A stretch of DNA of 64,000 nt from an uncultured Gammaproteobacteria bacterium (GTDB taxonomy: Bacteria > Patescibacteriota > Microgenomatia > Levybacterales > UBA12049), in NCBI GenBank assembly GCA_964521295.1, contig CAZFRF010000001.1:140675-204674 (forward strand), given 5' to 3'. Position numbers and translations under genes: made by a program. The notes under the pieces were generated by a model. The model made no database searches and had not been told where the DNA came from. It saw only the letters and a program-made list of their open reading frames with translations. This document shows, one piece after another, positions 3,236-47,990 of the stretch (positions within the stretch are counted from its first letter, which is position 1; each line of letters opens with the position of its first letter).

Positions 3236-5668
3236 ATGCTTGATTACGCAAGAAGATCAAGAAGACGAAGTAGTTATTTTACCCTGTCACTTCCAAATAT
3301 TCCTGGATTAAATAAGGGATTTAAAAGTTTAAATAATACACCTAAAATTGAAATTTACAGTAGGCTTTTAAAGTTTGCATTTATCGGTTTAATTGGGTTA
3401 ATTGTTTTTATGGTCTTTCTCTTTATTTGGTATGGAAGAGATTTGCCTGCTCCTGGAAAATTAGTCGAAGCGCAAGCAAATGGATCAAGTGGTATTTATG
3501 ATCGAAATGGTGAGCTTCTCTACTCTGTTTACCAAGATCAGAATAGAATTTACGTAAAACTAGATAAAATTCCTAAATATCTCCAGCAAGGTACGATTGC
3601 CATTGAAGACAAGAATTTCTACGCCAACAAAGGCTTTTCTTTTACAGGTTATATTAGAGGACTTATTATTGATCCAATTTTGCGAAGAAGAGTAACAGGG
3701 GGCTCTACAATAACCCAGCAGTTAGTTAAAAATGTCTTACTTACCAGTGAAAGAACATTGCCTCGTAAGGTAAAAGAGCTTATGCTCTCTATTCAGGTTG
3801 ATAGAAAATATTCAAAAAATGAAATCTTAGAAATGTACTTAAATGATGTTCCTTATGGTGGGACAGCTATTGGTGTTCAAGCTGCAGCGCAAGTATACTT
3901 TAGTAAAGATGTTAAAGACTTAACTTTAGGTGAATCAGCTTTTCTAGCTGGTCTTCCTCAGGGGCCAAGTCTTTACTCGCCTTTTTCTGGGAATAAATAC
4001 TACTTAGCTAGAACTCAGGCTGTTTTAAATCAAATGGTAAATCAGGGTTACGTAAACAGAGCTCAAGCAGACAAAGCATATAAAGAGATTGAAGCTAAAA
4101 AATTTGCCCAAACCCCTGTAGGTATTAAGGCTCCTCATTTTGTTATGTACGTCAAGCAACTTTTAATTAATCAGTTTGGTGAATCGGCAGTTGAGAGTGG
4201 AGGCTTAAGAGTTAAGACTACTTTGGATTATAAGATAGAAAAAGAGGCCGAGAAAATTGTTAATGAAGAAATAGGCAAACTAAAAAATTATAAAGTTGGA
4301 AATGGTGCCGCCATGGTTACGAGTCCCAAGACGGGTGAAATATTAGCAATGGTTGGAAGTGAAGATTATTTTAATATTAAAAACGATGGTAATTTCAATG
4401 CAGCGACAGCATATAGACAACCTGGATCCTCCCTTAAGCCTTTAACTTATGCAGTTGCCTTCTCTAAGGGCTATACACCTTCGACTCTTTTATTAGATAC
4501 TGAAACAAATTTTAAAGCAACTGATACTGAGAAAGATTATATTCCTGGAAATTACGATGGAAAGTTTAGAGGACCAGTTCAGGTAAGATTTGCGCTTGCT
4601 AATTCTTTGAATATACCAGCAGTAAAAATGTTGGCAATGGTAGGTGTAAAAAATGTAATGCAAAAAGGCTATGAAATGGGAATTGAAAATTGGCAGCCAA
4701 CTGATGATAACTTAAGGAATGTTGGTTATTCTCTTGTTTTAGGGGGAAGAGACGTTCGCTTAGTTGATCAAATGGAGGCATATGGAGTTTTTGCCAATGG
4801 TGGAGAAAAGCAACCGTTAGTATCAATTCTTGAAGTTCGTGACGCCAAAGGTAATGTAATATACAAATATAATCCTCCCTCTTCTCAGAGAATTTTTTCT
4901 CAAGAAATTAGTTTTCTAATTTCTCACATTTTACTTGACAATACAGCCAGAAGCGCAACTTTCGGGCAATATTCATATTTAAATGTTCCCAATCATCCAA
5001 GTGTTTCAGTAAAAACAGGTACTACAGATCAAAAAAGAGATAATTGGACAGTTGGATATACAAAATCATTTGTTGTTGGAACATGGGTTGGAAATAACAA
5101 CAATACACCGATGGGAAACATCTCCTCAGGTGTAACTGGAGCTGCTCCGATTTGGAATAGGATTATGAGTTTTGTTTTAAAAGGAAAATCCGATGAGCCT
5201 CCACAAAAACCAGATAACGTAGTAGCTTTAACTATTGATGCGTACGGCGGTGGATTACCAGTAGACGGAAGGCCAACTAGGAGTGAGTATTTTATAAAAG
5301 GGACTGAGCCAACTACTCCAGCAGCGATTTATCAAAAAGTAAAATTATCTAAGCATCAAGGAGGAAAATTAGCAAATTCTGCAGAGATCTCGGCAGGTGA
5401 TTATGATACTAAAGATTTTATAGTGTTTGCTGAAAAAGACCCAATTTCAGTTGATGGAAAAAATAGATGGCAAGATGGAATCACTGCTTGGTTAAAGAAA
5501 ACATTTGCAGCAGATCATCCTGAGTATTATCCCCCAACAGAAACTTCTGATTATAAACCAGGAGAAAATAATTCAAATAATAACAACAATAATCCTACTT
5601 CGACCCCTTCACCTACTCCAACGGGGATTATTCCAACAGTTTCTTTAACCTTAACTCCTACTCCTTAA
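3236..5668 (+). CDS. class A penicillin-binding protein (bifunctional transglycosylase/transpeptidase, PBP1A-type)
   Basis: N-terminal TM helix; GT51 motifs EDKNFY, GGSTITQQL, RKVKEL; transpeptidase SxxK (GSSLKP) and KTGT motifs. The C-terminus is an Asn-run plus a Pro/Thr/Ser low-complexity tail. Confidence 0.85.
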   Translation: MLDYARRSRRRSSYFTLSLPNIPGLNKGFKSLNNTPKIEIYSRLLKFAFIGLIGLIVFMVFLFIWYGRDLPAPGKLVEAQANGSSGIYDRNGELLYSVYQDQNRIYVKLDKIPKYLQQGTIAIEDKNFYANKGFSFTGYIRGLIIDPILRRRVTGGSTITQQLVKNVLLTSERTLPRKVKELMLSIQVDRKYSKNEILEMYLNDVPYGGTAIGVQAAAQVYFSKDVKDLTLGESAFLAGLPQGPSLYSPFSGNKYYLARTQAVLNQMVNQGYVNRAQADKAYKEIEAKKFAQTPVGIKAPHFVMYVKQLLINQFGESAVESGGLRVKTTLDYKIEKEAEKIVNEEIGKLKNYKVGNGAAMVTSPKTGEILAMVGSEDYFNIKNDGNFNAATAYRQPGSSLKPLTYAVAFSKGYTPSTLLLDTETNFKATDTEKDYIPGNYDGKFRGPVQVRFALANSLNIPAVKMLAMVGVKNVMQKGYEMGIENWQPTDDNLRNVGYSLVLGGRDVRLVDQMEAYGVFANGGEKQPLVSILEVRDAKGNVIYKYNPPSSQRIFSQEISFLISHILLDNTARSATFGQYSYLNVPNHPSVSVKTGTTDQKRDNWTVGYTKSFVVGTWVGNNNNTPMGNISSGVTGAAPIWNRIMSFVLKGKSDEPPQKPDNVVALTIDAYGGGLPVDGRPTRSEYFIKGTEPTTPAAIYQKVKLSKHQGGKLANSAEISAGDYDTKDFIVFAEKDPISVDGKNRWQDGITAWLKKTFAADHPEYYPPTETSDYKPGENNSNNNNNNPTSTPSPTPTGIIPTVSLTLTPTP

Positions 5669-7598
5669 TTTGAGCTTCAAATTTCTCTTTAAGCATTTCT
5701 AGAATTTTAACTCTTATTGCTCCAACCTCTTCTTTGGTTAAGTTTTTTTCAAAATCTTGGAAAATAATATGGAAAGTCCTACTGTTTTCGAAAGAATCAA
5801 GAAGAGTTACATCAACTATCAATTTGTTAATATTTTTTATCTCATTAATTATCTCCTGAGTCTCACCAGAAGTTATAACAGAGATGTCTTGGGTCATTGG
5901 TGGAAACTTTGCAAAAGGAATAAAATTCTTTTTTAGATTTGCATGTTGTAAAATAATTTCTAAATTTAATTCAAAATCTACTAGATTTTCATCTAAGACT
6001 TCTATTTCTCCTAGATATTCTTTATCTAAATAAATAGATGCTCCCGTTCCTCCCTTTTGTGATTTTTTAAAGACTAAATTTTTAATTCCCAAATCTTCGC
6101 ATACGCTTTCAATAAGACCTTTAACACTAAAAAAATTTAAATTTCGTTCTTTAATTATTCCAGAAAGAGTTAAAATTTCCTTAGGTAAATCATTTTTTTG
6201 TTTAATATAAATATTCGCAACTTCAAAAATTTTAAGTTTTTCTTTAGAACTATTTTCCTTTTCAACCAAAAGTAAACTTGGGATTAAAGTATTGCGTAGA
6301 TATTCCATATCCGTAGTAAGAGGATTTTTTATTCTTACTGCATCCTCAATTGGGCCTTCGAATAAGTCTTCAGAAATAAAAGAATATGTATATACTTCTG
6401 TAAAGCCTAAATATTTAAAGGCTGTTTTTATTTTTTGTTCAAAGTAAAAATTATTTGCAAATAGTAATTTTTTCGAACTTAGAAATGTTGGAATAATGCT
6501 GTCAATTTTGTGATATCCATAAATTCTAGCAATTTCTTCAATAATATCTTCTTCAATTTTTACATCTGGTCTCTCTGTAGGCGTTTCTATTTCAAGAGAG
6601 TCTTTTAATTTTTTAACATTAAAACCTAAGTCAGTTAAAATGCTTGCGCATTTTTCTAATGAAAGTTCTGCGCCAATTAAAGAGTTAATTTTTTTAAGAG
6701 AAACTGTAATTTTATTTTTGATGGGTTTATTTGGGTAATAATCAAAAATTTCAGAAATAACTTTGCCTTTAGCAATTTGTTGGTATAAATCAATTCCTCT
6801 TTCTAACGCCTTAGTCATTAATTCTGGATCTAATCCCTTTTCATTAATAATCGCTGCTTCAGTTCTAATCCCTAAATTCATTGAGGTTTTTCGAATGTTT
6901 AATGGATTGTTGTTGTCCATAAAAAACAATATTCTTTTTGTATTATTATTTACAACACTATTTTGTGTTCCCATTATTCCCAGTAAATCTATTATTGTTC
7001 CATTGCCATCTTCTGCAACTATGTCTCCCCCATTTAAGGAGTATGTTTTTCCATCAAGAGTCGTTATTTTTTCTTCTTTTTTACTTTCTCTAATAATCAT
7101 TTCTTTTGGCAAGAGATCAAAATCGAATACATGAGTTGGATGACCTGTTTCTCGCATAACATAATTTGTAACATCGATTAAATTGTTTAAACTTCTTATG
7201 CCTGATAATTCTAATCGTTTACTAATTTCTGCAGGGCTATCTCCAGTTTCTACTTCCATAACCACTGCACAAATTCTATTAACAAGTTTTGGATCTGCTT
7301 TTATTTTTATTGGGAATTTTTCAGAGGATTTTGTAAAAGATGCATTTCTAGGGTTTTTAAAAATCGCTTTTTTACCATTTTCATTTAAAGAAAGGGCTGC
7401 TTCCTTAGCAATATTTTTAACTGACATTAAATCTGATCTATTGGTGGTTACTTCAATGTTGTAAACAATGTCATCATTTATTTTTTCAGTTCTTTCGACA
7501 GATACACTAACTAAAGAAAGATCTTTAGCAATTGTATTTGCATTTTCTTTTGTTTCTAAAAATTCTCTAAGCCACGAATCAACTATTTTTATATTCAT
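5658..7598 (-). CDS. pheT: phenylalanyl-tRNA synthetase beta subunit (short form, 646 aa)
   Basis: Lies immediately downstream of pheS on the same strand. It has B3/4 and B5-like regions and a C-terminal FDX-ACB-like end (LTKEEVGAIRVKILE). Confidence 0.75.
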   Translation of the reverse strand: MNIKIVDSWLREFLETKENANTIAKDLSLVSVSVERTEKINDDIVYNIEVTTNRSDLMSVKNIAKEAALSLNENGKKAIFKNPRNASFTKSSEKFPIKIKADPKLVNRICAVVMEVETGDSPAEISKRLELSGIRSLNNLIDVTNYVMRETGHPTHVFDFDLLPKEMIIRESKKEEKITTLDGKTYSLNGGDIVAEDGNGTIIDLLGIMGTQNSVVNNNTKRILFFMDNNNPLNIRKTSMNLGIRTEAAIINEKGLDPELMTKALERGIDLYQQIAKGKVISEIFDYYPNKPIKNKITVSLKKINSLIGAELSLEKCASILTDLGFNVKKLKDSLEIETPTERPDVKIEEDIIEEIARIYGYHKIDSIIPTFLSSKKLLFANNFYFEQKIKTAFKYLGFTEVYTYSFISEDLFEGPIEDAVRIKNPLTTDMEYLRNTLIPSLLLVEKENSSKEKLKIFEVANIYIKQKNDLPKEILTLSGIIKERNLNFFSVKGLIESVCEDLGIKNLVFKKSQKGGTGASIYLDKEYLGEIEVLDENLVDFELNLEIILQHANLKKNFIPFAKFPPMTQDISVITSGETQEIINEIKNINKLIVDVTLLDSFENSRTFHIIFQDFEKNLTKEEVGAIRVKILEMLKEKFEAQIKE

Positions 7599-7599
7599 A

Positions 7600-8646
7600 T
7601 TAAAATTGTTCTAAGAAATCCATTTTATTTGCATAGAGTGAGCGTAAGTCGTCGATTTCAATTCCTTCCTTCATCATTAATACCCTCTCTACTCCCCAAC
7701 CGAAAGCAAAGCCATTATACGTTTTTGGATCAACTCCGCAATTTTTTAATACATTAGGGTGAACCATTCCCGCTCCTCCCATTTCAAGCCAACCTTCTTT
7801 GCAAAGCTTGCAGCCTTTGCCTTTACAAACACCACAGCTAACATCAATTTCAAATGATGGTTCTGTAAATTCAAAATGATAAGGTCTAATTCTGGAAACA
7901 CGATCTTCTCCGAAGTAACTTTTAACAAAATAATCTAAAACACCTTTTAAGTTAGCAATGGACAAGTCTTTATCTATAGCCAGTCCTTCAAATTGATGAA
8001 ACATTGGGGTATGCGAAACATCAGATTGTCTTCTGTAGCATTTTGCTATGTTTAACATTTTTATGGGCGGCTTGGTTGTTGTCAGTTCTCTTATTTGACC
8101 GCTAGATGTATGGGGTGTTAAAAGCATAGGTCCGAATTTTGAGCTCTCTTTTTCATCAATAAAGAATGTTTCCCAATCGTCTCTAGCTGGATGATTTTTA
8201 GAAAAGTTTAATGCCTCAAAAGCATACCAATCATATTCTACTTCAGGATACCTAACTCTGATAAAACCAATTTTTTCAAAGATTGATTCTATCTCTGTAA
8301 TCGCTTGAGTAACTAAATGCAAGTGTCCAATATTTGGTTTAACTCCTGGATTTGTTACGTCAATTTTTTCAATTAAACTTGTCTTTCTTTGATGGTTTAA
8401 ACTTTGTTTCTTGTCTTCAATAGCGTCTTCAATAGTTTGTTTTACATCGTTTGCAAGCACACCAATAGCAGGTCTTTTTTCAACCGGTACGTTTTTAATT
8501 TCTTTTAAGGCAAGAGTTAGCTTGCCACTTTTACCTAAAAATTGAAGTTTTGTTTCTTCTAAATTATCTAAATCTTCAGCCTCTAAAATAAAAGCAAGAG
8601 CTGTATTTTTAATTCCAATAAGTTCTTCTTCCATATTTACAATCAT
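7600..8646 (-). CDS. pheS: phenylalanyl-tRNA synthetase alpha subunit
   Basis: Class II core motifs (FRxE-like FHQFEGL, GWLEMGGAGMVHPNVL, GFAFGWGVERV). Confidence 0.9.
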   Translation of the reverse strand: MIVNMEEELIGIKNTALAFILEAEDLDNLEETKLQFLGKSGKLTLALKEIKNVPVEKRPAIGVLANDVKQTIEDAIEDKKQSLNHQRKTSLIEKIDVTNPGVKPNIGHLHLVTQAITEIESIFEKIGFIRVRYPEVEYDWYAFEALNFSKNHPARDDWETFFIDEKESSKFGPMLLTPHTSSGQIRELTTTKPPIKMLNIAKCYRRQSDVSHTPMFHQFEGLAIDKDLSIANLKGVLDYFVKSYFGEDRVSRIRPYHFEFTEPSFEIDVSCGVCKGKGCKLCKEGWLEMGGAGMVHPNVLKNCGVDPKTYNGFAFGWGVERVLMMKEGIEIDDLRSLYANKMDFLEQF

Positions 8647-8676
8647 AGCAAAAACTAAAGCAAAATGCTGTTTAGT

Positions 8677-8895
8677 TTATCCTTTTGATTCTTGTCTTTG
8701 TTGTGCTTGGTGCATTACTTGTAGTGCATCAATTGCGCCTGGTGTGTTTGCTGCAAGATGAGCAAGTCTCATTACTGCTTGAGCTGCAGCTTCTGGATTA
8801 GCTCCAGCCTTAGCCATTGCTGCTTCATTATGCGCAACTCCAACAACGTGGGTTACATCAACTATTGGTTTTCTTTCAATTCCTTTTCTTGTCAT
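8677..8895 (-). CDS. small G+C-rich hypothetical protein (72 aa; MTRKGIERKPIVDVTHVVGVAHNEAAMAKAG...)
   Basis: The internal ATG at 8893-8895 is preceded by AAGGAGGTG with 7-nt spacing. The supplied ORF (to 8943) uses a TTG start and reads through the upstream terminator hairpin. G+C is higher than in its neighbours. Confidence 0.4.
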   Translation of the reverse strand: MTRKGIERKPIVDVTHVVGVAHNEAAMAKAGANPEAAAQAVMRLAHLAANTPGAIDALQVMHQAQQRQESKG

Positions 8896-8913
8896 ATTAA
8901 TCACCTCCTTTAC

Positions 8914-8985
8914 AATAAAAAAACCTCCCGGTTGGGAGGTCAAATGCTTTTTGGCACTTATTTACCTCCCGTTAGGGATAGTAAA
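8914..8985 (-). promoter_or_regulatory. leader/terminator element A: small hairpin (tccc-GTTA-ggga on +) followed by the greA terminator hairpin (acctccc-ggtt-gggaggt + U-tract on the minus strand) and then the SD of the downstream gene
   Basis: 7-bp perfect GC-rich stem at 8923-8940; A-run at 8914-8922 on + (U-tract on minus). The 3' arm of the small hairpin (GGGAGG) is complementary to the terminator 5' arm (CCTCCC). Confidence 0.6.
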
Positions 8986-9021
8986 GTAAAAACCAAAAAA
9001 GTTTCTTAAATTCATATAGAC

Positions 9022-9050
9022 AATATAACAGATAGCCTGTTCTTATTCAA
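9022..9050 (-). promoter_or_regulatory. candidate sigma70-type promoter (TTGAAT-17-TATATT on the minus strand) driving the leader of the 8677..8895 gene
   Basis: Hexamers read on the minus strand; the -35 box overlaps the greA stop. Confidence 0.35.
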
Positions 9051-9495
9051 TAGAAACTATTAAATATTCAACAATTCCTGTTGGTGTTTTAATTTGTGCT
9101 TTTTCTCCAATTTTTTTTCCAAGTAATGCATAGCCAAACGGAGATTTGTTAGAAATTTTCCCAAGTGACGGATTTGCTTCAAACTCGCCTACTATTAAAT
9201 ATTCTTTTTCAAGCTTTTCATTTTTAATTTTAACTTTATGTCCAATTTGAATAATTTCTTTTCCCTCAGGGGTAAAGACCTTAGCAGATTTTAATAAATA
9301 TTTTAGATTGCGCATTTCTCTATCGATATCAGAAAGCTCAAATTTAGCGGCTTTATACAAACCGTTTTCAGATAAATCTCCCATTTCTCTGGCTCTTTTT
9401 AATGTGGCGACAGCTTCAGGTCTTTTGACAACTAAAGCTTGAAGTTTATCTTCAATTTCTTTGATTCCTTGTTTTGTAAAGGGAATTATTCTCAT
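9043..9495 (-). CDS. greA: transcription elongation factor GreA
   Basis: 150 aa; N-terminal coiled coil and C-terminal FKBP-like domain (GKISNKSPFGYALLGKKIGE). Confidence 0.9.
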   Translation of the reverse strand: MRIIPFTKQGIKEIEDKLQALVVKRPEAVATLKRAREMGDLSENGLYKAAKFELSDIDREMRNLKYLLKSAKVFTPEGKEIIQIGHKVKIKNEKLEKEYLIVGEFEANPSLGKISNKSPFGYALLGKKIGEKAQIKTPTGIVEYLIVSIE

Positions 9496-9498
9496 TTA

Positions 9499-10266
9499 TT
9501 AAAAACCACTTGCGGCTGTTGCTCTTCCTTCAAGTTCTGCAATTCCAGTAAGTAAGGAAATTTGTTGAACAGAGTTAACAACATTATGTGAGACAGCGAA
9601 AAATTCTTGACCCGGTTTAATAAAGGGCGCATCAATACTTGGACTACCAAGTAAGCCAATATTTAGGTGTAAAGCTTCTTCAGTGTCAACCTGAATATCT
9701 CTTGGTTGCAGTCCGAACGGAGCCATAGTTGTATAGGCTCTTTGCATTCTAGATTGGATGCCTTCGTTAAGTTCTGCACCAGCGTTTTGAGCAATAAAAG
9801 TAGCAAATGCAGGAGTTCCATCCATTGAGATTGCCCAATTGTCGCCTGGTTTTTGACCAAGGTTTAAATGAAGACGTGTTAATTGAGGAATATCTGTTTG
9901 CGGATCTGCATCTAAGAACGTAGAAAAATCAGTTAGAAGTAATCTTAGAGTTGCAACTCCATTAGTAATATTATCCCAATCTACTCCAAGATGAGTTGGT
10001 TTGGGTAGATCAAATTTATATGTGATCCAATCAGGATGAGCTCCTTCATGAGTTTCTAAAACTCCGCCATAACCCCAGCCGTGTTCTGCGCTTGGTTGTA
10101 CAAATTGTCCAGGAACACTAGAGAATCCTCTTCTTATTTGGACAGTGTCTTTATCAAATGTATTTCTATCTGGAGCAATTGATTTGGGAATATGAATTTG
10201 CAGAGCTTCACCAGTTGTAGCTAATCTATAGACTGCCTTCGGGTTTTCTTGTAGATTTCTAGCCAT
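9499..10266 (-). CDS. hypothetical protein (255 aa), G+C-rich, inserted between rplT and greA
   Basis: Long ORF with clearly higher G+C than the flanking ribosomal genes. TATAAT lies 7 nt before the ATG (leaderless-type) and there is no recognisable SD. No motif recognised. Confidence 0.45.
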   Translation of the reverse strand: MARNLQENPKAVYRLATTGEALQIHIPKSIAPDRNTFDKDTVQIRRGFSSVPGQFVQPSAEHGWGYGGVLETHEGAHPDWITYKFDLPKPTHLGVDWDNITNGVATLRLLLTDFSTFLDADPQTDIPQLTRLHLNLGQKPGDNWAISMDGTPAFATFIAQNAGAELNEGIQSRMQRAYTTMAPFGLQPRDIQVDTEEALHLNIGLLGSPSIDAPFIKPGQEFFAVSHNVVNSVQQISLLTGIAELEGRATAASGF

Positions 10267-10287
10267 TCTGGAGATTATATCAAATTA

Positions 10288-10632
10288 TTATTTAACAGAG
10301 GCAACTAATTTGGTGAAAGTTGCTGGATCGTTAGTTACTAAATCTGCGAGAATTTTTCTATCTAATTCAATTTTTTCTTTTTTAAGTTTTCCAATAAGTA
10401 CGCTGTATGATGTACCTTCTTTTTTAGCAGCTTCACCGATTCTTATTTGCCATAAGGATCTAATATTTCTCTTTTTTAATTTTCTACCATGAAATGCATA
10501 GGCACCAGCATGAAGACTTGCTTCATGTTGCATTTTTGTAAGTTTTGATTTAGTACCTCTATAGCCTTTGGTTAAGACTTTTAATTTATTATGTTTTCTT
10601 TTGGAAACTAATCCTCTTTTAACTCTTGCCAT
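10288..10632 (-). CDS. rplT: 50S ribosomal protein L20
   Basis: MARVKRGLVSKRKHNKLKVLTKGYRG... is the typical L20 N-terminus. Confidence 0.9.
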   Translation of the reverse strand: MARVKRGLVSKRKHNKLKVLTKGYRGTKSKLTKMQHEASLHAGAYAFHGRKLKKRNIRSLWQIRIGEAAKKEGTSYSVLIGKLKKEKIELDRKILADLVTNDPATFTKLVASVK

Positions 10633-10633
10633 A

Positions 10634-10831
10634 TTATAATTCTCCTAATAATTTCTTGATATTTCTACCAAATCTACCACCTAGAACTGCTGGCTCTTTT
10701 TGTCTTCTGATTCTAGATTTACTTTTGTTTTTCTTTTTATGACTGCCATATTGATGTTCAAACATTACCTTACCTTTTTTGGTAACTTTAAACCTCTTGG
10801 CTACTGATTTCTTGATTTTCATCTTTTTCAT
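10634..10831 (-). CDS. rpmI: 50S ribosomal protein L35
   Basis: Small basic protein (MKIKKSVAKRFKVTKKGKV...) between infC and rplT. The true start is probably the internal Met, since the 5' end overlaps infC. Confidence 0.8.
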   Translation of the reverse strand: MKKMKIKKSVAKRFKVTKKGKVMFEHQYGSHKKKNKSKSRIRRQKEPAVLGGRFGRNIKKLLGEL

Positions 10832-11372
10832 TTTGTTTTTTCCTTTCTGGTGAGATTAAAACTATTAATTTTCTGCCCTCTAGTCTTCTCTCTCTGTCTA
10901 CCTTCGATATATCCGAAAGCAAATCTAAAGCTTTATCCAAAGTTCTGTGTCCAAACTCAGGATGAGTAATTTGCCTTCCGCTAAAAGAAACGACTAATCT
11001 GACTTTATCTCCGTTTTGCAAAAACTCTCTTGCTCTACCTACCATTACTTGAAGATCATTGTCTCCCATAAATGGTCCTAGGCGAACTTCTTTGGTTTCA
11101 GTAGTTTTTGCATTTCTTTTCTCTTCTCTTTTTTTCTTTTCCTCTTGATACAAAAACTTCTTGAAATCAATTAATTTTGCTACCGGTGGCTTAGCCATTG
11201 GAGCTATCTCTACTAGATCAAGCTCTTGTTCTCTTGCCAAATTTAAAGCTTCAAATTTGGAGAGTACTCCGATTTGCTTTCCTTCTGAGTCCAAAACCCG
11301 AAGTTCAGTTGCAAAAATTCGTTCGTTAGTGCGATAAAATTTTCTATCGTCTTTTTTAAACTTTTTTATCAA
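10788..11372 (-). CDS. infC: translation initiation factor IF-3
   Basis: N- and C-domains of IF3 (RVLDSEGKQIGVLSKFEALNLAREQELDLVEIAPMAKPPV...), in the conserved thrS-infC-rpmI-rplT order. Confidence 0.85.
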   Translation of the reverse strand: MIKKFKKDDRKFYRTNERIFATELRVLDSEGKQIGVLSKFEALNLAREQELDLVEIAPMAKPPVAKLIDFKKFLYQEEKKKREEKRNAKTTETKEVRLGPFMGDNDLQVMVGRAREFLQNGDKVRLVVSFSGRQITHPEFGHRTLDKALDLLSDISKVDRERRLEGRKLIVLISPERKKQNEKDENQEISSQEV

Positions 11373-12576
11373 TTTCGTCTTTTACCTTTGTTAAGAAATC
11401 TGAAATTTTCAGTACTCCTAAGTCTTTTCCATCTCTTAGCCTTAAAGAGACACTGTCATTTTCGACTTCCTTGCCTCCTATTATACCTAAAAATGGAATT
11501 TTTTGCAAAGTAGCGTTTTTAATCTTTTCTCTTAATGGGTCGCTAGAGCTATCTAAATATACTCTTACTCCCTGTTGGGTAAGATCTTGGCTAAGTTTTT
11601 TAGCAAATTCTAGTTGTGCGTCGGTAATTGGAAGTAAGGCTACTTGAGTTGGAGAGAGCCACAATGGGAAGTTTCCTTGATAGTGTTCAGTAAGAATTCC
11701 AATATATCTTTCAAAGCTACCTAGGATTGCTCTATGGATCATGACAGGCCTACCAAAGCTACCATCTTTTTGGACATATTTTAAGTCAAATGCTTCAGGC
11801 ATATGGAAATCTAGTTGAACTGTTGCAAGTTGCCATTCACGACCTAAGGAATCTTTAATATGAACATCAATTTTGGGTCCGTAAAATGCTCCATCTCCTT
11901 CTTTAAGGGAATATTTTAAGTTTTTCTTTTTTAAAGCTTCTTCTAAGTCTTTTTCAGCTTTTGTCCAGTTGTCCTCTGTGCCTGCGAAGAGCTCGGGTCT
12001 AGTGGCGAGTCTAAAATCAAATTCAAAACCGAATTTAGTATAGAATTCAATCATCATATCTAAAATATTGGAAACTTCTGAAAAAATATCATCTTCTGAA
12101 GCAAAGATATGGGCGTCATCCATGGTAATTTGTCTTACTCTTAAAAGTCCGTTTACTTCCCCACTCTTTTCTCTTCTGTGAAGCCTGCCGATTTCGGAAA
12201 GTCTTAAAGGAAGTTCTCTATATGATCTTGGTCTAAATCTATAGGCAATTGTTGCTTCAGGACAGTTCATTGGTTTTAGAGTATATAGCTCTCCTTTGGT
12301 ATCGTCTTCTGGATTATCCGATAGGTGCAGGTTGTACATGTTGTGTTCACCAAATTTAGTCCAGTGGCCTGATTCTTTAAACAGTTGGGATTTGATCATA
12401 ATAGGAGTTGAGATTTCTTGATAACCCGCTTTATCTAGTAAAAGTCTAATGTATTTTTCTAGCTCTTTAAAAATGATCATGCCTTTTGGAAGCCAGAAAG
12501 GAGCACCTGGTGCATATTCATGTGAGAAAAATAGTTCTAGTTCTTGGCCTAATTGTTTGTGATCTTTTAAATCCAT
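11356..12576 (-). CDS. thrS: threonyl-tRNA synthetase, short form (catalytic + anticodon-binding domains only)
   Basis: Class II motifs (FRxE: RLHRREKSGE; motif 3 region GSFERYIGIL). It has a C-terminal anticodon-binding domain but only 406 aa, so the TGS and editing N-terminal domains are absent. Confidence 0.8.
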   Translation of the reverse strand: MDLKDHKQLGQELELFFSHEYAPGAPFWLPKGMIIFKELEKYIRLLLDKAGYQEISTPIMIKSQLFKESGHWTKFGEHNMYNLHLSDNPEDDTKGELYTLKPMNCPEATIAYRFRPRSYRELPLRLSEIGRLHRREKSGEVNGLLRVRQITMDDAHIFASEDDIFSEVSNILDMMIEFYTKFGFEFDFRLATRPELFAGTEDNWTKAEKDLEEALKKKNLKYSLKEGDGAFYGPKIDVHIKDSLGREWQLATVQLDFHMPEAFDLKYVQKDGSFGRPVMIHRAILGSFERYIGILTEHYQGNFPLWLSPTQVALLPITDAQLEFAKKLSQDLTQQGVRVYLDSSSDPLREKIKNATLQKIPFLGIIGGKEVENDSVSLRLRDGKDLGVLKISDFLTKVKDEIDKKV

Positions 12577-12926: not shown

Positions 12927-13280
12927 ATGAGAAGACTTGAATTAGGTGCGTTAATATTAGGCACGAGTATTGCATCTGTGGCTGTAGGTGGAGTTGTTGT
13001 GAGTTTAAATGAAAGAATTCAACCAGAAAAGCAGCAAGGTTTGAGCACAGATGCTTCAATTCGTCCATCATTTGGTAATGATGCTCAAGTCCAACAACCT
13101 CCTCAGGTTACTATTGAGTACTTAACACGTTTAGATGGTGATGCGGGTCTTTCAAGATTAACTGATAGAGATAAGGGAAACGTTTGCTATGCAGTAGTTC
13201 TTAATGATGGAGCTGGAAGAAGCGGTGTTGCTATAGATTGTGTGAATGATCAAGTAGCACCAGTAGCTACTCCACGCTAA
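12927..13280 (+). CDS. small G+C-rich secreted/membrane-anchored hypothetical protein (117 aa from the MRRLELGALILG start)
   Basis: N-terminal hydrophobic segment. The ORF-track start at 12873 lies upstream of the promoter. G+C is elevated. Confidence 0.35.
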   Translation: MRRLELGALILGTSIASVAVGGVVVSLNERIQPEKQQGLSTDASIRPSFGNDAQVQQPPQVTIEYLTRLDGDAGLSRLTDRDKGNVCYAVVLNDGAGRSGVAIDCVNDQVAPVATPR

Positions 13281-13854: not shown

Positions 13855-13874
13855 TAATCTATTGTAGCAAATTG

Positions 13875-13949
13875 TGGGCCCTAGAAGAGTCGAACTTCTG
13901 ACCTTTACAATGTCAATGTAACGCTCTAACCAACTGAGCTAAGAGCCCG
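13875..13949 (-). tRNA. tRNA-Val (GAC)
   Basis: Cloverleaf on the minus strand: acceptor gggctct/agggccc, anticodon loop TTGACAT, T-loop TTCGACT. Confidence 0.8.
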
Positions 13950-14582: not shown

Positions 14583-15500
14583 TTATTGAGGCTTTATGGC
14601 TGCAACTGGTATTCCTAATCTTCTTTTTCTATGACCTTTTGCTTCTGAAACATGTTGAACGCTGTATGCTAAGGCTTCTCTTTCAATCTGCCTCCATGTA
14701 CCTTGCGGATCATATAAGGGTATTGCTCCAGATGCAATATAGTTTCTCGCGCCATAATATTGTCCATTAGTTAATTTAGATCTGTCTTGAACCATAACTC
14801 CTGCATTTCCTGGATTGTGTTCTTGAGAATCAAGCCTAGGAACACAGGCTAATATTTCATCTTTTAATCTTTCTCTTTCAGGTCTGATACGAGTTAGTAG
14901 TTCATCTCTTTGTTCGTCAGTAATTCTGCCAACAACAGCTAAATCAATATTGCTTGGATCTGGATGATCTGGTCTTTTAACTAATCCTTTAGCAACTGAG
15001 CCAAAAAGTAATACAGCAACGTCATGTTGTGGATCAATTTCTCTCCATTGTTCAACAATGTGTGCAGCCAAACTTCCAGCTTGTCTAAGTAGCACTTCTC
15101 TTCTTTGATAATCGACGTCTTCCATATATCTTCTACCTGCCTCTGGTTTTGGATATCTTTTAGCTAAAATCGCACAATTTTTCATTATTGCGAGTCTTGC
15201 CTTTTCTTCTACTGGCCACAGATTTGCTTTTTCCTCAGTAGTGAATCTTGTTCCTTCTTGTTTGTGTTGTCTTGCTAAAGCCATTACTCTTGCGGTATGT
15301 TCAGGGGCAACAACTTTTATGCCAAACCTAGGTAGAGTTATTAAGTAATCAGGTTTAGTTGGCGTTTGGGTAGCGATTTGTTCAGTTGGGATAACTGTCG
15401 GTAAGCTAGTTTTTTTAGCCACTGTTTGATTTCCCATGAATTGGGCAGCAATCATATCTGGTGTGAATCCTGGTCTTGGTTTTAATTCAGATGTAATCAT
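14583..15500 (-). CDS. nucleotidyltransferase-fold protein, paralog 1 (MNT/pol-beta-like GS...NIDL motif)
   Basis: LLFGSVAKGLVKRPDHPDPSNIDLAVVG fits hG[GS]x(9-13)[DE]h[DE]h, but with Asn in place of the first acidic residue. The likely ATG is at 15498-15500, since the ORF-track start is TTG. G+C-rich. Confidence 0.5.
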   Translation of the reverse strand: MITSELKPRPGFTPDMIAAQFMGNQTVAKKTSLPTVIPTEQIATQTPTKPDYLITLPRFGIKVVAPEHTARVMALARQHKQEGTRFTTEEKANLWPVEEKARLAIMKNCAILAKRYPKPEAGRRYMEDVDYQRREVLLRQAGSLAAHIVEQWREIDPQHDVAVLLFGSVAKGLVKRPDHPDPSNIDLAVVGRITDEQRDELLTRIRPERERLKDEILACVPRLDSQEHNPGNAGVMVQDRSKLTNGQYYGARNYIASGAIPLYDPQGTWRQIEREALAYSVQHVSEAKGHRKRRLGIPVAAIKPQ

Positions 15501-15510
15501 ATTTTTAAAC

Positions 15511-15575
15511 AAAAAAAACCGCCTAGTATATTAGGCGGGTAAATTTTTGCAACGAATCCCCGCCGTTAGGCGTTA
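15511..15575 (-). promoter_or_regulatory. leader/terminator element E: small hairpin cgcc-GTTA-ggcg plus terminator hairpin ccgccta-gtatat-taggcgg with an 8-nt U-tract (minus strand), 11 nt before the start codon
   Basis: Same three-part architecture as elements A-D but with a compensatory GC variant (GGCGGGG/CCCGCC). Confidence 0.55.
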
Positions 15576-15621
15576 ATAAGATCTGCAAAATTTCTACAAA
15601 CTAATTTCATGTTAAGAAAGT

Positions 15622-15650
15622 AATTGTAGTACTAATCTATTAATGTGTCA
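15622..15650 (-). promoter_or_regulatory. near-consensus promoter TTGACA-17-TACAAT (minus strand) upstream of element E
   Basis: RC of 15645-15650 is TTGACA and RC of 15622-15627 is TACAAT, with a 17-nt spacer. Confidence 0.45.
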
Positions 15651-15677
15651 AGTTTTGGGTTAATTTAGGAAGCTAAA

Positions 15678-16460
15678 TTAATTACGGCCTTTATGTGTGT
15701 GCGCTGCTCTTTTAGCCAGTAACCCTGCTTGATATTCAATGGCGCCTTTGTCTATTTCAGCCCAAATTCCCGCAGGATCATGTAGGGCATAAGCTCCTGA
15801 GGCAAGATAGACTCTAGCTTCGCCAAAATGATCTTTAGTTAAGACTTCAGGTTTTTGGACAAATACTCCTACATTTCCAGGTAGTGGATCTAATGTTTTG
15901 TCAACATTTGGACAAGTTGATCTGATTAATTCCCCCAAAGCTGTTCTTTCTTTGCGTATAGCATTTAAAAGTGCCGTGGTTGTTTCGGTTGTAAAGTTTC
16001 CAACAACAGCTAGATCAATGTTGCTTGGATCTGGGTGAAGTCTTGATTTAACAAGACCTGTTGCAACTGATCCAAACAATACAACCGCTATGTCTTTTTC
16101 AGGTTCAATATTCCTCCATTCTGAGGTGATATGATCAGACATTCTATCAGCCATATCTAAAAGTTCAATATGTCTTTCAGTGTCGATTTCATGCATAAAA
16201 CTTTCGCCGATTTGTCTTTCGGGATATCTACGGGCAGTGATTTTGCTACTTAACATTAATTGGATTCTTGCTTTTAATTCAGGCGTCCAAAGCAAAGGTC
16301 TTTGGCTTGGATCTAAAGGTGTATGAACTCTTTGTCCCTCAACAAGCGTAGTTCTTTGTCTAATTGACGATAAAACCTCACGTACAGGAGCAGGAGCAAC
16401 CACTCTTATTCCTGCATGTGGGTGCGTGATTCTTCTATCTAATTCAAATGTATTAATCAT
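15678..16460 (-). CDS. nucleotidyltransferase-fold protein, paralog 2
   Basis: VVLFGSVATGLVKSRLHPDPSNIDLAVVG is the same motif with the same Asn substitution. It is alignable with 14583..15500 over most of its length. G+C-rich. Confidence 0.5.
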   Translation of the reverse strand: MINTFELDRRITHPHAGIRVVAPAPVREVLSSIRQRTTLVEGQRVHTPLDPSQRPLLWTPELKARIQLMLSSKITARRYPERQIGESFMHEIDTERHIELLDMADRMSDHITSEWRNIEPEKDIAVVLFGSVATGLVKSRLHPDPSNIDLAVVGNFTTETTTALLNAIRKERTALGELIRSTCPNVDKTLDPLPGNVGVFVQKPEVLTKDHFGEARVYLASGAYALHDPAGIWAEIDKGAIEYQAGLLAKRAAHTHKGRN

Positions 16461-16545
16461 AAAATAAAAAAACCTCCCAATTTGGGAGGTCTATTTGTTA
16501 TTTGCTAATTTTTAGTTACGCAAATAAACCTCCTTTAAGGAAGTT
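16461..16545 (-). promoter_or_regulatory. leader/terminator element B (terminator hairpin cctccca-att-tgggagg + U-tract; upstream small element cctcctttaaggaag)
   Basis: 7-bp GC stem at 16473-16489; the A/T run at 16461-16472 abuts the start codon at 16460. Confidence 0.55.
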
Positions 16546-16594
16546 ATTCTTGCTCTTGAATTCAAATTTATAGTTCATAGTAGGTATTATAGTA

Positions 16595-18096: not shown

Positions 18097-18105
18097 ATTT
18101 ATTTG

Positions 18106-18189
18106 TGCGGACGAGAGGAGTTGAACCCCCACGCCTTTAAAGGGCACAAGGTCCTAAACCTTGCGTGTCTGCCATTTCACCACGTCCGC
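18106..18189 (-). tRNA. tRNA-Leu (UAG)
   Basis: Minus-strand cloverleaf with a long variable arm, anticodon loop TTTAGGA, acceptor gcggacg/cgtccgc. Confidence 0.8.
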
Positions 18190-18912: not shown

Positions 18913-19554
18913 CTATAGGTCTGTGTCTTTATAATCGAGCCTATCCATATAGACTGCGATCCATTTTGCCCAGCTGCCATTAACACTTACTGGGTTATAT
19001 TTACTCATTAATTCTTCTGGGGTTTCTAGGCCTTTAGCTATATACTGAGTTGCCAATGTTTTGGTTACAACATCGATGGCTTGATTAAAGCTATCAAAGC
19101 TGGTAACTTTTTTCCCATAAATTCCAAATCCCCAACAATTATGAGTATCTTTATATTTTTTAGGGAGATTTTTACATAAAGTTGATTCTTGCATAGCTAT
19201 GGCAGGGATTAATCTGTAATCAATATCATATTTATCAGCAGCTTTAACAATTTCTCCGGCATATGGTAAAAGCGGTGATTTATGTAAAGAAAGAAAATCT
19301 TGTATTGAGCTTACTCTTGCATCTACTATTTCTGGCTTAAGAATAGTCTCTTGTCCTCCGCTAGGAAGTGCAGCGTAGGCAACTTTTGGTGTTTGATTAA
19401 GGGAAAATAGCACATCACTTCCCTGACGATAGATAAAAGAAAGAAAAAGAAGGCTAAGAATAAGGGTTGTGGGGGTTAAAAAGAAAAAGAGACTGAGCAG
19501 TAATATCTTTTTCATAATACCAGTTATATTTACAGATTTAGAGCTTAAAGTCAA
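18913..19554 (-). CDS. secreted GH73-like peptidoglycan hydrolase, paralog
   Basis: AIAMQESTLCK...NCWGFGIYGK is alignable with 18241..18798. It has an N-terminal TM/signal segment. Confidence 0.5.
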   Translation of the reverse strand: MTLSSKSVNITGIMKKILLLSLFFFLTPTTLILSLLFLSFIYRQGSDVLFSLNQTPKVAYAALPSGGQETILKPEIVDARVSSIQDFLSLHKSPLLPYAGEIVKAADKYDIDYRLIPAIAMQESTLCKNLPKKYKDTHNCWGFGIYGKKVTSFDSFNQAIDVVTKTLATQYIAKGLETPEELMSKYNPVSVNGSWAKWIAVYMDRLDYKDTDL

Positions 19555-19952
19555 GCTTTTGAGGCTGAAAAAGGCTCAGGTTTATATTCTAGTTCTAGTC
19601 TTCTTGCCTCACCAGTTTTAGGATCTTTTCCAATATCCGCTGCGCCATGTGCTTTTCTGCCTACGTTTATTCTGTGAGTGCCAGTTGTAGCGGCAAAATG
19701 ATGATTTAAGTCTCTTAATGATCTGTGTGGTCTTTTTAAAATTTTACCAGCAACTAATACTTCATAGGGATTCTCTCTGGTTTGGACAGAAAAATCTACT
19801 AAAATCACTCCAGCATGCTCGGTTTTAAATACTCCAGCTTGATTTGGGCCAATAAATCTTCCATCCATAGTTGGCATGTTTTTACCGATAAGTGTCTGCC
19901 CATTTAGTGTGAGGCTAAAATGATTTCTATCTCTCTCAGGTCCTTTAATCAT
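19551..19952 (-). CDS. hypothetical protein (133 aa), G+C-rich, translationally coupled to the downstream GH73 gene
   Basis: 4-nt overlap with the 18913..19554 start. No confident family assignment. Confidence 0.35.
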   Translation of the reverse strand: MIKGPERDRNHFSLTLNGQTLIGKNMPTMDGRFIGPNQAGVFKTEHAGVILVDFSVQTRENPYEVLVAGKILKRPHRSLRDLNHHFAATTGTHRINVGRKAHGAADIGKDPKTGEARRLELEYKPEPFSASKA

Positions 19953-20094: not shown

Positions 20095-20140
20095 CAATAA
20101 TATAGTAAAACGAAGCTAAATTTTGTATAATCAATTTTAC

Positions 20141-47525: not shown

Positions 47526-47990
47526 ATGCCACATATTCACGAGAAGATTGATTTTACTGTTGAAGTATTCGTTGTATATAGAAATACAGTACTTTTAAGA
47601 AAACATGACAAATATAAAGTTTGGCTGAGTGTTGGAGGTCATATAGAGCTTGACGAAGACCCAAATCAAGCAGCTATCAGGGAAGTAAAAGAAGAAGTCG
47701 GTTTGGACGCCGTTCTAGATGATTCCTTGCAGACATTTAAGAAAAATGATGCGGATTATCAAGAGTTAATTCCACCTTATTTTGTTAATAGTCATAGAAT
47801 AAATGATACTCACGAGCATGTAACTTTTACCTATTTTGCGACAGCACAATCAAATAAAATTGAGCAATTAACAGAAGATGAACAAAGCACTGATTGCAAA
47901 TGGTTTACAAAAGAAGAGATAGAACATTTAGATGATATTCGAGAAAGTGTCAAGCATTATGCCCTTAAAGCATTAAGTGTGTTAGCTTAA
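47526..47990 (+). CDS. NUDIX hydrolase
   Basis: Nudix box GGHIELDEDPNQAAIREVKEEVGLD. The start is taken at MPHIHEK because the ORF-track extension covers the tRNA-like gene. TATAAT lies 7 nt upstream of the ATG. Confidence 0.65.
   Translation: MPHIHEKIDFTVEVFVVYRNTVLLRKHDKYKVWLSVGGHIELDEDPNQAAIREVKEEVGLDAVLDDSLQTFKKNDADYQELIPPYFVNSHRINDTHEHVTFTYFATAQSNKIEQLTEDEQSTDCKWFTKEEIEHLDDIRESVKHYALKALSVLA

Follow-up and report, generated by a model that had tools for sequence, protein, structure and literature searches.

The G+C-rich gene mosaic of a Levybacteria-like genome is an amino acid composition signal carried by probably native, lineage-restricted genes

We analyzed a 64,000-nucleotide stretch of DNA (the window) from a small (~0.94 Mb), AT-rich (34% G+C) genome of the Microgenomates/Levybacteria group of the CPR (Patescibacteria). 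ORFs of visibly higher G+C are scattered among its conserved housekeeping genes, and an initial annotation had proposed that they form a distinct population, possibly horizontally acquired or separately regulated. Native, fast-evolving, lineage-restricted genes are the probable explanation of this mosaic; leaderless-type promoters are general in the window, and a predicted phenylalanine (Phe) attenuator lies ahead of one of the ORFs. The genome would hold two interleaved classes of genes, one encoding conserved housekeeping and Pfam-annotated proteins that are rich in Lys, Ile, Asn, Phe, and Tyr and mostly basic, and the other encoding lineage-restricted, fast-evolving accessory proteins that are rich in Arg, Pro, His, Gln, and Ala and mostly acidic. 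Codon choice and GC3 are the same in the two classes, which argues that the accessory genes are long resident and natively evolving and are not recent imports.

The G+C excess is confined to codon positions 1 and 2

Two of the flagged ORFs, designated X and Y, interrupt the row of ribosomal protein, greA, and pheST genes:

10288..10632, minus strand: rplT (L20), identified by translation; end of the thrS-infC-rpmI-rplT row and border upstream of X
9499..10266, minus strand: X, 255 aa; GC12 (codon positions 1 and 2) 0.496, GC3 0.195; member of an unnamed, CPR-restricted family
9043..9495, minus strand: greA; ATG 3 nt past the X stop (TAA-TAA-ATG), without a -10 box or Shine-Dalgarno (SD) sequence of its own
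8677..8895, minus strand: Y, 72 aa, Ala rich, lacking Phe, Tyr, and Trp; GC12 0.56, GC3 0.15
5658..8634, minus strand: pheS-pheT, identified by translation and by the Pfam families of the L081 and L082 homologues

As first annotated, X lies between rplT and greA and Y between greA and pheS, and both are richer in G+C (X, 0.396; Y, ~0.42) than their flanks (rplT, 0.307; greA, 0.309; pheS, 0.342). The same mosaic had been said to recur at 12927-13280, 14583-17242, 19551-19952, 21519-21887, 24382-25683, 27622-29050, 34794-35747, 42441-42944, 46118-47080, 53218-54078, 55316-56251, and 59876-61366, and it does: G+C at codon positions 1 and 2 was 0.480 in the 18 flagged ORFs and 0.379 in the 50 others. 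The GC12 values form a continuum with a high shoulder, without two clean modes. A quantitative G+C and GC3 comparison, which had been suggested as a check, set the flagged ORFs apart in GC12 only. GC3 was the same as in the rest of the window (0.212 for the flagged ORFs and 0.222 for the others; P = 0.31), synonymous codon fractions of the two groups were correlated at r = 0.989, and the Arg codon AGA had a share of 71% in flagged ORFs and 68% elsewhere. Since GC3 and synonymous codon usage are unchanged, the G+C excess, which resides in codon positions 1 and 2 only, is a signal of amino acid composition and not of foreign DNA.

The encoded proteins differ accordingly. Arg, Pro, His, Gln, and Ala are raised in the flagged proteins and Lys, Ile, Asn, Phe, and Tyr are lowered, so that FYMINK residues make up 0.22 of them (0.35 of the others) and GARP residues 0.29 (0.19 of the others). 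Arg accounts for 6.7% of residues in flagged proteins compared with 3.3% in others, and Lys for 5.1% compared with 8.9%, giving R/(R+K) ratios of ~0.57 and 0.27, respectively. The median pI is 6.0 for the flagged proteins, which are mostly acidic, and 9.0 for the others, which are mostly basic.

The proposal of a distinct gene population held up in terms of conservation. No Pfam family was found for 15 of the 18 flagged ORFs, compared with 9 of the 50 others (Fisher P = 1.4e-6), and flagged ORFs were absent or very divergent in relatives that conserve the neighboring genes. GC12 was inversely correlated with identity to family-level relatives (Spearman, -0.76; P = 5e-6) and to close relatives (-0.70). 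Comparison with relatives covered the window from 2 to 23 kb; beyond 23 kb, the statement on flagged-ORF conservation is one of Pfam absence and composition only. Besides X and Y, the compared region includes the following flagged ORFs:

12927..13280, plus strand: 117 aa, GC12 0.525; hydrophobic segment at the N terminus, putatively transmembrane
14583..16460, minus strand: paralogous pair of nucleotidyltransferase-like ORFs sharing 43% identity
19551..19952, minus strand: 133 aa, adjoining tRNA-Leu; TAAAAT, 6 nt, ATG

The first of these is absent even from the closest relatives. The nucleotidyltransferase-like pair is 74% and 86% identical to its counterparts in L083 and is present as a single copy in L002. 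The ORF at 19551..19952 has 43% identity to its homologue in L084, where its neighbors have 90 to 94%.

X belongs to a CPR-restricted family and is syntenic but divergent in relatives

HMMER searches with X gave 59 matches at E <= 1e-3, with a top identity of 34%. These define a family of ~250 to 290 aa with the motifs WGFG, PQL, and HNxDxPxQQLTLLxG. Neither X nor any of 45 family members matched Pfam, and X matched nothing in the PDB by sequence or by family profile. In a word-indexed protein search X matched itself alone, and the family profile retrieved only 6 unnamed proteins. The AF2 model of X is of a confident fold (pLDDT, 90.3), and no structural neighbor of the model was found in the PDB.

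Homologues of X follow rplT in the related contigs L081, L083, and L085 and stand ahead of pheS in a fourth, L082; these contigs represent at least two Levybacteria lineages. By contrast, the family-level relatives L001 to L004 have none of X, Y, 12927-13280, and 19551-19952 at the corresponding junctions, and their rplT-greA and greA-pheS gaps are just ~25 to 50 nt. Syntenic homologues of X therefore exist, as the L081, L083, and L085 loci show, but are not ubiquitous. X is 35% identical to its syntenic homologues, compared with 85 to 98% for flanking genes (rplT, 96% in L081 and L083 and ~77% in L002 and L085); identity falls sharply at the X borders, and the promoter and its spacing are conserved. 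The homologues in L081, L082, and L085, the three checked, have the same excess, with a GC12 of 0.47 to 0.50.

Between L081 and L083, X has a dN of 0.108 and a dS of 0.83 (thrS, 0.010 and 0.56). The resulting dN/dS of ~0.13, from the only pair with measurable dS, indicates that X is under purifying selection. Syntenic homologues with dN/dS below 1 were found for X, Y, 14583, 15678, and 19551. The flanking genes are near synonymous saturation (four-fold site identity, 0.5 to 0.6; dS, 0.6 to 1.5). A recent allele swap as the sole cause of the 35% identity of X was rejected because flanking dS is already near saturation, and hypermutation of the DGR type was rejected because the divergence spans the whole length of the protein.

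Leaderless-type promoters are general in the window

X is preceded by a leaderless-type promoter:

10274..10279, minus strand: -10 box TATAAT, 7 nt ahead of the X start codon, leaderless type, without an SD

The initial annotation had placed TATAAT 7 nt before the ATG of three genes. This spacing is correct for 9499..10266, whereas it is 6 nt for 47526..47990 and 10 nt for 12927..13280. The geometry recurs at the X homologues of L081 and L083 (TATAAT plus 7 nt), L082 (TATAAT plus 8 nt), and L085 (TATAAT plus 8 nt, GTG start). Because the greA ATG lies 3 nt past the X stop and lacks both an SD and a separate -10 box, we infer that the two genes share a transcript and that greA is translated by coupling. 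Relatives that lack X have a separate -10 box for greA (in L003, TAGAAT, 6 nt, ATG). X would thus have taken the promoter-proximal place in an X-greA operon that starts at the leaderless-type promoter (TATAAT, 7 nt, ATG).

Across the window, -10-like boxes spike ahead of start codons, with counts of 19, 11, and 6 at distances of 6, 7, and 8 nt compared with ~3 at each other distance. Genes with a -10 box at 6 to 8 nt have no SD of at least 4 nt at -3 to -12. This geometry was seen in ~9 of the 18 flagged ORFs and ~19 of the 50 unflagged ones, and the unflagged genes without it are mostly internal operon genes. The contrast drawn earlier between leaderless accessory genes and SD-led housekeeping genes therefore fails, since the spike includes thrS, tyrS, and pheS as well as many Pfam-annotated enzyme genes, SD sites are rare, and the best SD belongs to a flagged ORF, Y. 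Nor did a separately regulated leaderless class emerge, the geometry being general in the window. Leaderless-type promoters appear to be the general rule for the first genes of transcription units here and not a mark of the accessory class.

The pattern resembles the leaderless mRNAs of other bacteria (Actinobacteria, Deinococcus-Thermus) in its TANNNT box 6 to 8 nt before ATG or GTG and its lack of an SD; it was found in ~30 of ~68 window genes, mostly the first genes of units. It differs in its host, a member of the Microgenomates group of the CPR in which it is known from sequence geometry, and in occurring alongside a handful of strong SD sites (Y and an HSP20 gene) and tight stop-start coupling in operons. 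Our literature search found no relevant report on leaderless transcription in CPR/Patescibacteria.

A predicted Phe attenuator lies upstream of Y

The DNA between greA and pheS holds the following features in addition to Y:

9022..9050, minus strand: putative leader promoter (-35 TTGAAT, 17-nt spacer, extended -10 TGtTATATT), from a promoter scan and the sequence
8962..9015, minus strand: putative leaderless leader ORF, MNLRNFFGFYFTIPNGR and stop, 17 codons, with 4 Phe within 6 codons, from reading of the sequence
8947..9000, minus strand: hairpin 1:2, predicted pairing of the Phe-codon stretch with GGGAGGUAAAUAAGUGCCAAAAAG
8917..8941, minus strand: predicted intrinsic terminator 3:4, GACCUCCC-AACC-GGGAGGUU followed by a U-run (8-bp stem plus U7)
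8901..8910, minus strand: SD sequence AAGGAGGTGA, 5 to 8 nt before the Y ATG depending on the motif end counted
8632..8647, minus strand: pheS promoter, leaderless type, -10 TATGAT (8647-8642), 7 nt, ATG (8634)

The leader upstream of Y looks like a pheM-style attenuator that senses Phe. The leader ATG stands 6 nt past the extended -10 box, the leader ORF has no SD, and its stop codon falls inside RNA segment 2. The predicted fold with hairpins 1:2 and 3:4 has an MFE of -33.6 kcal/mol (z = -4.8). In the alternative antiterminator, segment 2 pairs with segment 3 (AUUUGACCUCCC); this hairpin alone is predicted at -17.7 kcal/mol (z = -5.5) and displaces the 3:4 terminator once segment 1 is removed. 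The transcript would open, leaderless, with the 17-codon Phe-rich ORF. A ribosome stalled at the Phe codons of segment 1 would allow the 2:3 antiterminator to form and transcription to read through into Y and possibly pheST, and a ribosome at the leader stop in segment 2, or no translation at all, would let the 3:4 terminator form.

The leader promoter is nearly invariant in L081 and L083, the leader ORF is kept in both with one N-to-K change, and the same folds are predicted for both. Across the three genomes the leader DNA hardly varies, compared with just ~50 to 60% identity at four-fold sites of neighboring genes; this invariance leaves no covariation support for the helices. The attenuator is absent from L002 to L004 and L082 and present only in the closest relatives, and scanning metagenomes for the leader DNA gave no match.

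The SD core of Y, AAGGAGG, scored at 8 nt from the ATG, is the strongest SD match in the window and is kept in L081. The L081 homologue of Y occupies the same position and is 77 aa long, with 67 to 71% identity and a dN/dS of ~0.16. Y matched no Pfam family, was absent from L001 to L080, and was not found in a JGI metagenome scan. An N-run at the Y position of L083 was rejected as evidence that Y is absent there, as it is a scaffold gap. Downstream of Y, the true pheS start is MEEELIG (8634; alternative, 8646), so that pheS spans 7600-8634 or 7600-8646. In L001 to L004, L081, and L082, pheS has a matching -10 box ahead of it, and pheS-pheT is 88 to 96% identical in L081. Y and a second promoter, that of pheS, separate the terminator from pheS, and regulation may reach Y only.

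Classical examples of ribosome-mediated attenuation in aminoacyl-tRNA synthetase operons are E. coli pheM-pheST and Streptomyces trpS/leuS (PMC1262725). The candidate leader shares with them a short ORF in which cognate (Phe) codons are clustered and the stop falls in segment 2, hairpins (1:2, 2:3, and 3:4) that are mutually exclusive, a terminator that is rich in G+C and followed by a U-run, and a position just upstream of pheS. Unlike them, its leader ORF is itself of the leaderless type (-10 box, 6 nt, AUG) without an SD, the 72-aa gene Y and a second promoter intervene between terminator and pheS, and it occurs in a CPR host, in the closest relatives only. We found no attenuator reported in CPR bacteria.

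Origin of the G+C-rich ORFs

Recent horizontal acquisition was not borne out. GC3 and codon usage are native (r = 0.989), X is syntenic with its GC12 excess in relatives, tblastn against phages gave no matches for X or for the ParB-like ORF at 24382-25677, and Pfam scans of the window ORFs found no integrase or transposase domains. As in genomic islands and integron cassettes, single genes stand at junctions that are empty in relatives (in L001 to L004 for X, Y, 12927-13280, and 19551-19952), some of them beside tRNA genes. Unlike such elements, X is syntenic in L081, L083, and L085, the flagged ORFs show no synonymous-site deviation, the window ORFs include no integrase or transposase domain, flanking repeats were not noticed, the junctions are of 3 to 21 nt, and each gene has an ordinary host-type promoter. 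An integron-like or MITE-like cassette was rejected, there being no room for ends (the X borders are 21 nt upstream, which hold the promoter, and 3 nt downstream) and no attC. We consider it quite unlikely that the ORFs are instead old acquisitions from G+C-richer donors (the host, other bacteria, or mobile elements) whose synonymous sites have ameliorated while amino acid composition keeps the donor signature, although individual ORFs may have come from such an ancient transfer. An R/(R+K) of ~0.57 is usually seen in genomes of far higher G+C, and such an origin would also suit the absence of four of these ORFs from L001 to L004, the location of several beside tRNA genes, a classical target of integration, and the presence of other cargo in the greA-pheS slot of L001. 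However, codon usage is indistinguishable and GC3 equal, the X-family genomic contexts that could be read are all CPR-like housekeeping DNA, phage matches and mobile-element domains were lacking in the searches just described, and the X junctions are too tight for element ends. The X protein is fast (dN, 0.1 to 0.7), yet its homologues in L081, L082, and L085 have a GC12 of 0.47 to 0.50, so that the composition looks stationary and selected and not like a decaying relic.

X and ORFs such as 19551-19952 might instead be hypervariable loci shaped by diversifying selection or by repeated replacement of alleles, for example in host interaction or defense, with their flanks serving as recombination anchors. 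We regard this as unlikely, although identities of 35% (X) and 43% (19551) beside adjacent genes at 90 to 98%, the sharp drop at the ORF borders with promoter and spacing conserved, and the different orphans that fill equivalent slots in L085, L090, and L001 would fit it. The dN of X between the window and L081 (0.72) is, moreover, ~1.7-fold above a simple clock extrapolation from the L081-L083 pair, so allele replacement at the X locus is possible. With flank synonymous sites near saturation, however, a weakly constrained protein reaches ~35% identity unaided, and the dN/dS of X (0.13) is that of purifying selection. That the flagged ORFs are noncoding or miscalled and owe their G+C to structured RNA or chance is highly improbable, and for X and Y it is effectively refuted. 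Most flagged ORFs do lack a Pfam family, and X matched only itself in the word-indexed search; on the other hand, ORFs this long are improbable by chance at 34% G+C, G-rich first codon positions with low GC3 are a typical coding pattern, an Rfam scan found no RNA family at flagged ORFs, five of the ORFs have syntenic homologues with dN/dS below 1, and X has 59 homologues and a model of pLDDT 90. A more speculative elaboration, to which we give little weight, is that the GC12-rich ORFs form one coherent, rapidly diversifying set (e.g., episymbiont-host interaction proteins) whose composition is held by selection and not ancestry, X, which lies promoter-proximal to greA and recurs next to genes for ribosomal proteins or aminoacyl-tRNA synthetases, being a hypervariable member with a new fold and the leaderless Phe-leader attenuator driving the aromatic-free Y being a CPR-specific starvation switch.

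Discussion

Native, fast-evolving, lineage-restricted genes, our preferred explanation, have precedents in the ORFan and accessory genes of reduced genomes. Like these, the flagged ORFs lack recognized families, occur in some relatives and not in others, evolve faster at the protein level, and sit amid conserved housekeeping genes and beside tRNA genes. Bacterial ORFans are typically shorter and more AT-rich than native genes. The flagged ORFs, in contrast, exceed the rest of the window in G+C at codon positions 1 and 2 and are entirely native in codon usage, and X keeps its synteny in at least two Levybacteria lineages, with a predicted fold that is well defined. The GC12 trend of lineage-specific genes here thus runs opposite to the usual finding of AT-rich ORFans.

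A visible G+C mosaic in an AT-rich reduced genome can be purely an effect of amino acid composition, and inferring horizontal transfer from it requires that GC3 and codon usage be checked first. GC12 or the Arg/Lys ratio may serve to predict, at little cost, which genes are lineage specific and fast evolving (rho, ~-0.76 here). The X family, compact, confidently foldable, without a solved relative, and adjoining translation and transcription genes, is a reasonable target for structural and functional work. Leaderless-type promoters at unit starts in a Levybacteria-like genome bear on the calling of gene starts in CPR MAGs. A textbook-style Phe attenuator on a leaderless transcript would, if true, mean that amino-acid-auxotrophic CPR cells sense tRNA charging.

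Gene order and source genome

The window has an overall G+C content of 33.9% (range per 1 kb, 0.26 to 0.41) and lies on a contig of 935,984 bp. The best matches of GreA, trigger factor, and the products of neighboring genes were in MAGs labeled Levybacteria/Levyibacteriota, Microgenomates, or Patescibacteria, which identifies the source as a CPR genome. The minus-strand housekeeping row reads as follows:

11356-12576, minus strand: thrS, first of the row
Between thrS and rplT, minus strand: infC, then rpmI
10288-10632, minus strand: rplT
9499-10266, minus strand: X, a 255-aa ORF, after rplT
9043-9495, minus strand: greA, after X
greA to pheS, minus strand: spacer of 390 nt, containing Y
8677-8895, minus strand: Y, a 72-aa ORF
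Thereafter, minus strand: pheS, pheT, and the gene for a class-A PBP, which ends the listed row

Composition of the G+C-rich ORFs

The initial annotation singled out 18 G+C-rich ORFs, here called flagged, and comparison with the other 50 ORFs of the window confirmed the mosaic. G+C at codon positions 1 and 2 (GC12) was 0.480 in flagged ORFs versus 0.379 in the rest. The excess was confined to these positions, G+C at position 3 (GC3) being 0.212 versus 0.222 (P = 0.31; 68 ORFs for both measures). The difference is one of amino acids: synonymous-codon fractions in the two sets were correlated at r = 0.989, and AGA made up 71% of Arg codons in flagged ORFs versus 68% in the rest. Flagged ORFs were enriched in Arg (2.1-fold), Pro (1.6-fold), His (1.5-fold), and Gln (1.45-fold) and depleted in Lys (0.58-fold), Asn (0.62-fold), Ile (0.64-fold), and Phe (0.67-fold), with a median pI of 6.0 versus 9.0.

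P values on GC12 itself are circular because the ORFs had been picked by G+C; associations with Pfam and with conservation are independent of that choice. A Pfam family was lacking in 15 of 18 flagged ORFs versus 9 of 50 others (Fisher P = 1.4e-6). GC12 correlated negatively with protein identity to family-level relatives (Spearman, -0.76; P = 5e-6) and to close relatives (-0.70), both computed over the part of the window for which relatives were available (up to 23 kb). The GC12 histogram was a continuum with a high shoulder and no two separate modes. In this AT-rich genome, the less conserved proteins are the less AT-shifted ones. The ORF at 37530-38981 (plus strand) has an unusual codon-position profile (GC2 of 0.53, above GC1 of 0.39). 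Its product, 483 aa long and rich in Ser, Gly, and Thr, matches no Pfam family and opens with a hydrophobic stretch resembling a signal peptide; it is probably secreted or located at the cell surface.

Promoters and translation starts

X is preceded by TATAAT (10279-10274), 7 nt, and then ATG, with no Shine-Dalgarno (SD) motif, and the layout is repeated ahead of its homologues. Both strands were scanned for hexamers close to the -10 consensus ahead of a start codon, counting only ORFs of 100 codons or more. Spacings of 6, 7, and 8 nt gave 19, 11, and 6 cases, versus about 3 at each other spacing. This leaderless geometry was found in about half of the flagged ORFs, at tyrS, thrS, pheS (true start, 8634; MEEELIG), and an HD-like protein gene, and also at the arginase, esterase, NUDIX, GrpB, and MgsA genes. 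SD motifs were scarce (Y, the HSP20 gene, rplT, and 22456-23304). The supposed contrast between leaderless flagged genes and SD-led housekeeping genes thus finds no support, and the geometry is a window-wide rule and no marker of the flagged class.

The window greA lacks both a -10 box and an SD motif and starts 3 nt past the X stop, whereas in L003, a family-level relative without X, greA is preceded by TAGAAT, 6 nt, and ATG. This suggests that X is the promoter-proximal gene of an X-greA unit.

The longest trigger-factor ORF (17263-18147) opens at a GTG overlapping tRNA-Leu (18105-18189); because homologues are 277 aa, translation probably begins at the ATG at 18096 (ORF 17263-18096). For 24382, 27622, 55316, and pheS, too, the longest ORF begins a few codons ahead of the likely start, which in each case lies 6 to 8 nt past a -10 box.

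Distribution and rates of evolution

Four family-level relatives (L001 to L004) keep the whole housekeeping row, with proteins 55 to 82% identical to those of the window. Their rplT-greA spacers are about 10 to 25 nt, and the greA-pheS spacers of L002 to L004 are about 35 to 50 nt. X, Y, 12927-13280, and 19551-19952 were absent from all four. In L001, the greA-pheS slot (8447-10968) is filled with other cargo of ordinary composition (411- and 234-aa ORFs); the same slot has therefore been reused in different lineages.

An exhaustive HMMER search returned 59 X homologues (E ≤ 1e-3; nearly all 250 to 290 aa; top identity, 34%), ruling out that X is an orphan. Homologues lie between rplT and greA in the closest relatives, L081 (Logan SRR17233806) and L083 (GCA_964540925.1), after rplT and a 94-aa orphan in L085/L090 (GCA_016199085.1, a more distant Levybacteria MAG), and directly upstream of pheS in L082. 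X is thus an old, patchily retained resident of the rplT/greA/pheS neighborhood. Two remote members are flanked by a DUF4012 gene and rplY. Y had a homologue in L081 only, its site in L083 being an assembly gap. Equivalent slots of relatives (the rplT-X junction, near an EamA gene, and past DUF5660) hold GC12-rich orphans (0.48 to 0.55; L085 4682-4966, L090 7794-8222 and 11664-13337) with no detectable similarity to window ORFs.

Between the window and L081/L083, thrS, infC, rpmI, rplT, pheS, and the HD-like protein (13285-13854) are 95 to 98% identical, pheT 88%, greA 83 to 85%, 14583-15512 74 to 77%, Y 67 to 71%, the HIT gene (14019-14582) 66 to 69%, 19551-19952 43 to 46%, and X 34 to 37%; 12927-13280 is absent from L081 and L083 too. 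These low identities require no special mechanism: four-fold degenerate sites of flanking genes are just 50 to 60% identical (dS, 0.6 to 1.5). In the closer pair, L081 and L083, X has a dN of 0.108 and a dS of 0.83 (omega, about 0.13) and thrS a dN of 0.010 and a dS of 0.56 (omega, about 0.02). X is thus a functional gene subject to purifying selection, although it evolves about ten times as fast as thrS. X homologues in L081, L082, and L085 have a GC12 of 0.47 to 0.50 versus 0.31 to 0.42 in neighbors, with GC3 at the local value. Such constant composition despite sequence turnover favors selection on the properties of the protein over a donor signature in decay. Two tandem paralogue pairs were seen, 14583-15512 with 15678-16460 (43% identical; nucleotidyltransferase-like, one copy in L002) and 18241-18798 with 18913-19554 (34%).

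A predicted attenuator ahead of Y

The greA-Y spacer has the features of a leader-peptide attenuator:

9050-9022, minus strand: leader promoter, -35 TTGAAT, 17-nt spacer, extended -10 TGtTATATT
9015-8962, minus strand: leader ORF, ATG 6 nt past the -10, MNLRNFFGFYFTIPNGR-stop
8941-8917, minus strand: terminator, 8-bp G+C-rich stem and U7, after the default hairpin

The predicted default fold (MFE, -33.6 kcal/mol; z = -4.8) consists of a long hairpin, in which GGGAGGUAAAUAAGUGCCAAAAAG (segment 2) pairs with the Phe-codon stretch (segment 1), and then the terminator. With segment 1 removed, segment 2, which contains the leader stop codon, is predicted to pair instead with AUUUGACCUCCC (-17.7 kcal/mol; z = -5.5), at the expense of the terminator. 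The logic is that of classical attenuation, as in Escherichia coli pheM-pheST and Streptomyces trpS/leuS (PMC1262725); unlike those, the window element would belong to a transcript that is leaderless. Over its 130 nt, the element hardly varies among the window, L081, and L083 despite near-saturated synonymous sites nearby, and genomes that lack Y (L002 to L004 and L082) lack the element as well. It certainly precedes Y, which lies downstream of the terminator with a strong SD; because pheS has retained a -10 box of its own (8647-8642), added read-through into pheST is only possible. Y and its L081 homologue (4647-4880) contain no Phe, Tyr, or Trp, notable given the putative Phe-sensing leader in front.

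CCTCCC-N(4-5)-GGGAGG hairpins occur at 16473-16489, 47088-47104, 47225-47240, and 8924-8939 (shuffles expect 0). Two, with U-runs, end 4 to 11 nt ahead of the starts of 15678-16460 and 46118-47080, which places the 3' arm GGGAGG at SD distance; each of the two may combine terminator and SD in one element.

Other RNA features

An FMN riboswitch (Rfam RF00050; 76.5 bits) at 20269-20381 (plus strand) directly precedes an EamA-family transporter gene (20380-21288), probably a riboflavin importer. A stand-alone flavokinase gene (119 aa) lies at 42085-42444. Several of the flagged ORFs lie between or next to the thirteen tRNA genes (13874-13948, 18105-18189, 20011-20224, 21330-21480, 21926-21998, 39169-39242, 41908-42083, 43024-43095, 44950-45023, and 47412-47484): 21519-21887 has tRNA-Phe on one side and tRNA-Gly on the other, and 47526-47990 immediately follows tRNA-His.

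The X family and the nature of the flagged genes

An alignment of 45 X-family sequences showed the conserved motifs W-G-F/Y-G, P-Q-L, and H-N-x-D-x-P-x-Q-Q-L-T-L-L-x-G; P-G-N-A-C-G-L-D-P, present in most members, is missing from the window's X. No aligned member matched Pfam, and a PDB search with the family profile gave no match. An AlphaFold2 model of X, built with the alignment, has an alpha/beta fold (pLDDT, 90.3; pTM, 0.90). As X lies between the promoter and greA and is found repeatedly next to rplT, pheS, or rplY, our working guess is that it acts in the cytoplasm with a functional link to transcription or translation.

The initial annotation was largely right in its observation that X, Y, and the other flagged ORFs are G+C richer; its interpretation holds in half. 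The evidence speaks against a recent horizontal origin of these genes and against a separate promoter class. What stands is that they form a population of their own, specific to the lineage and fast-evolving.
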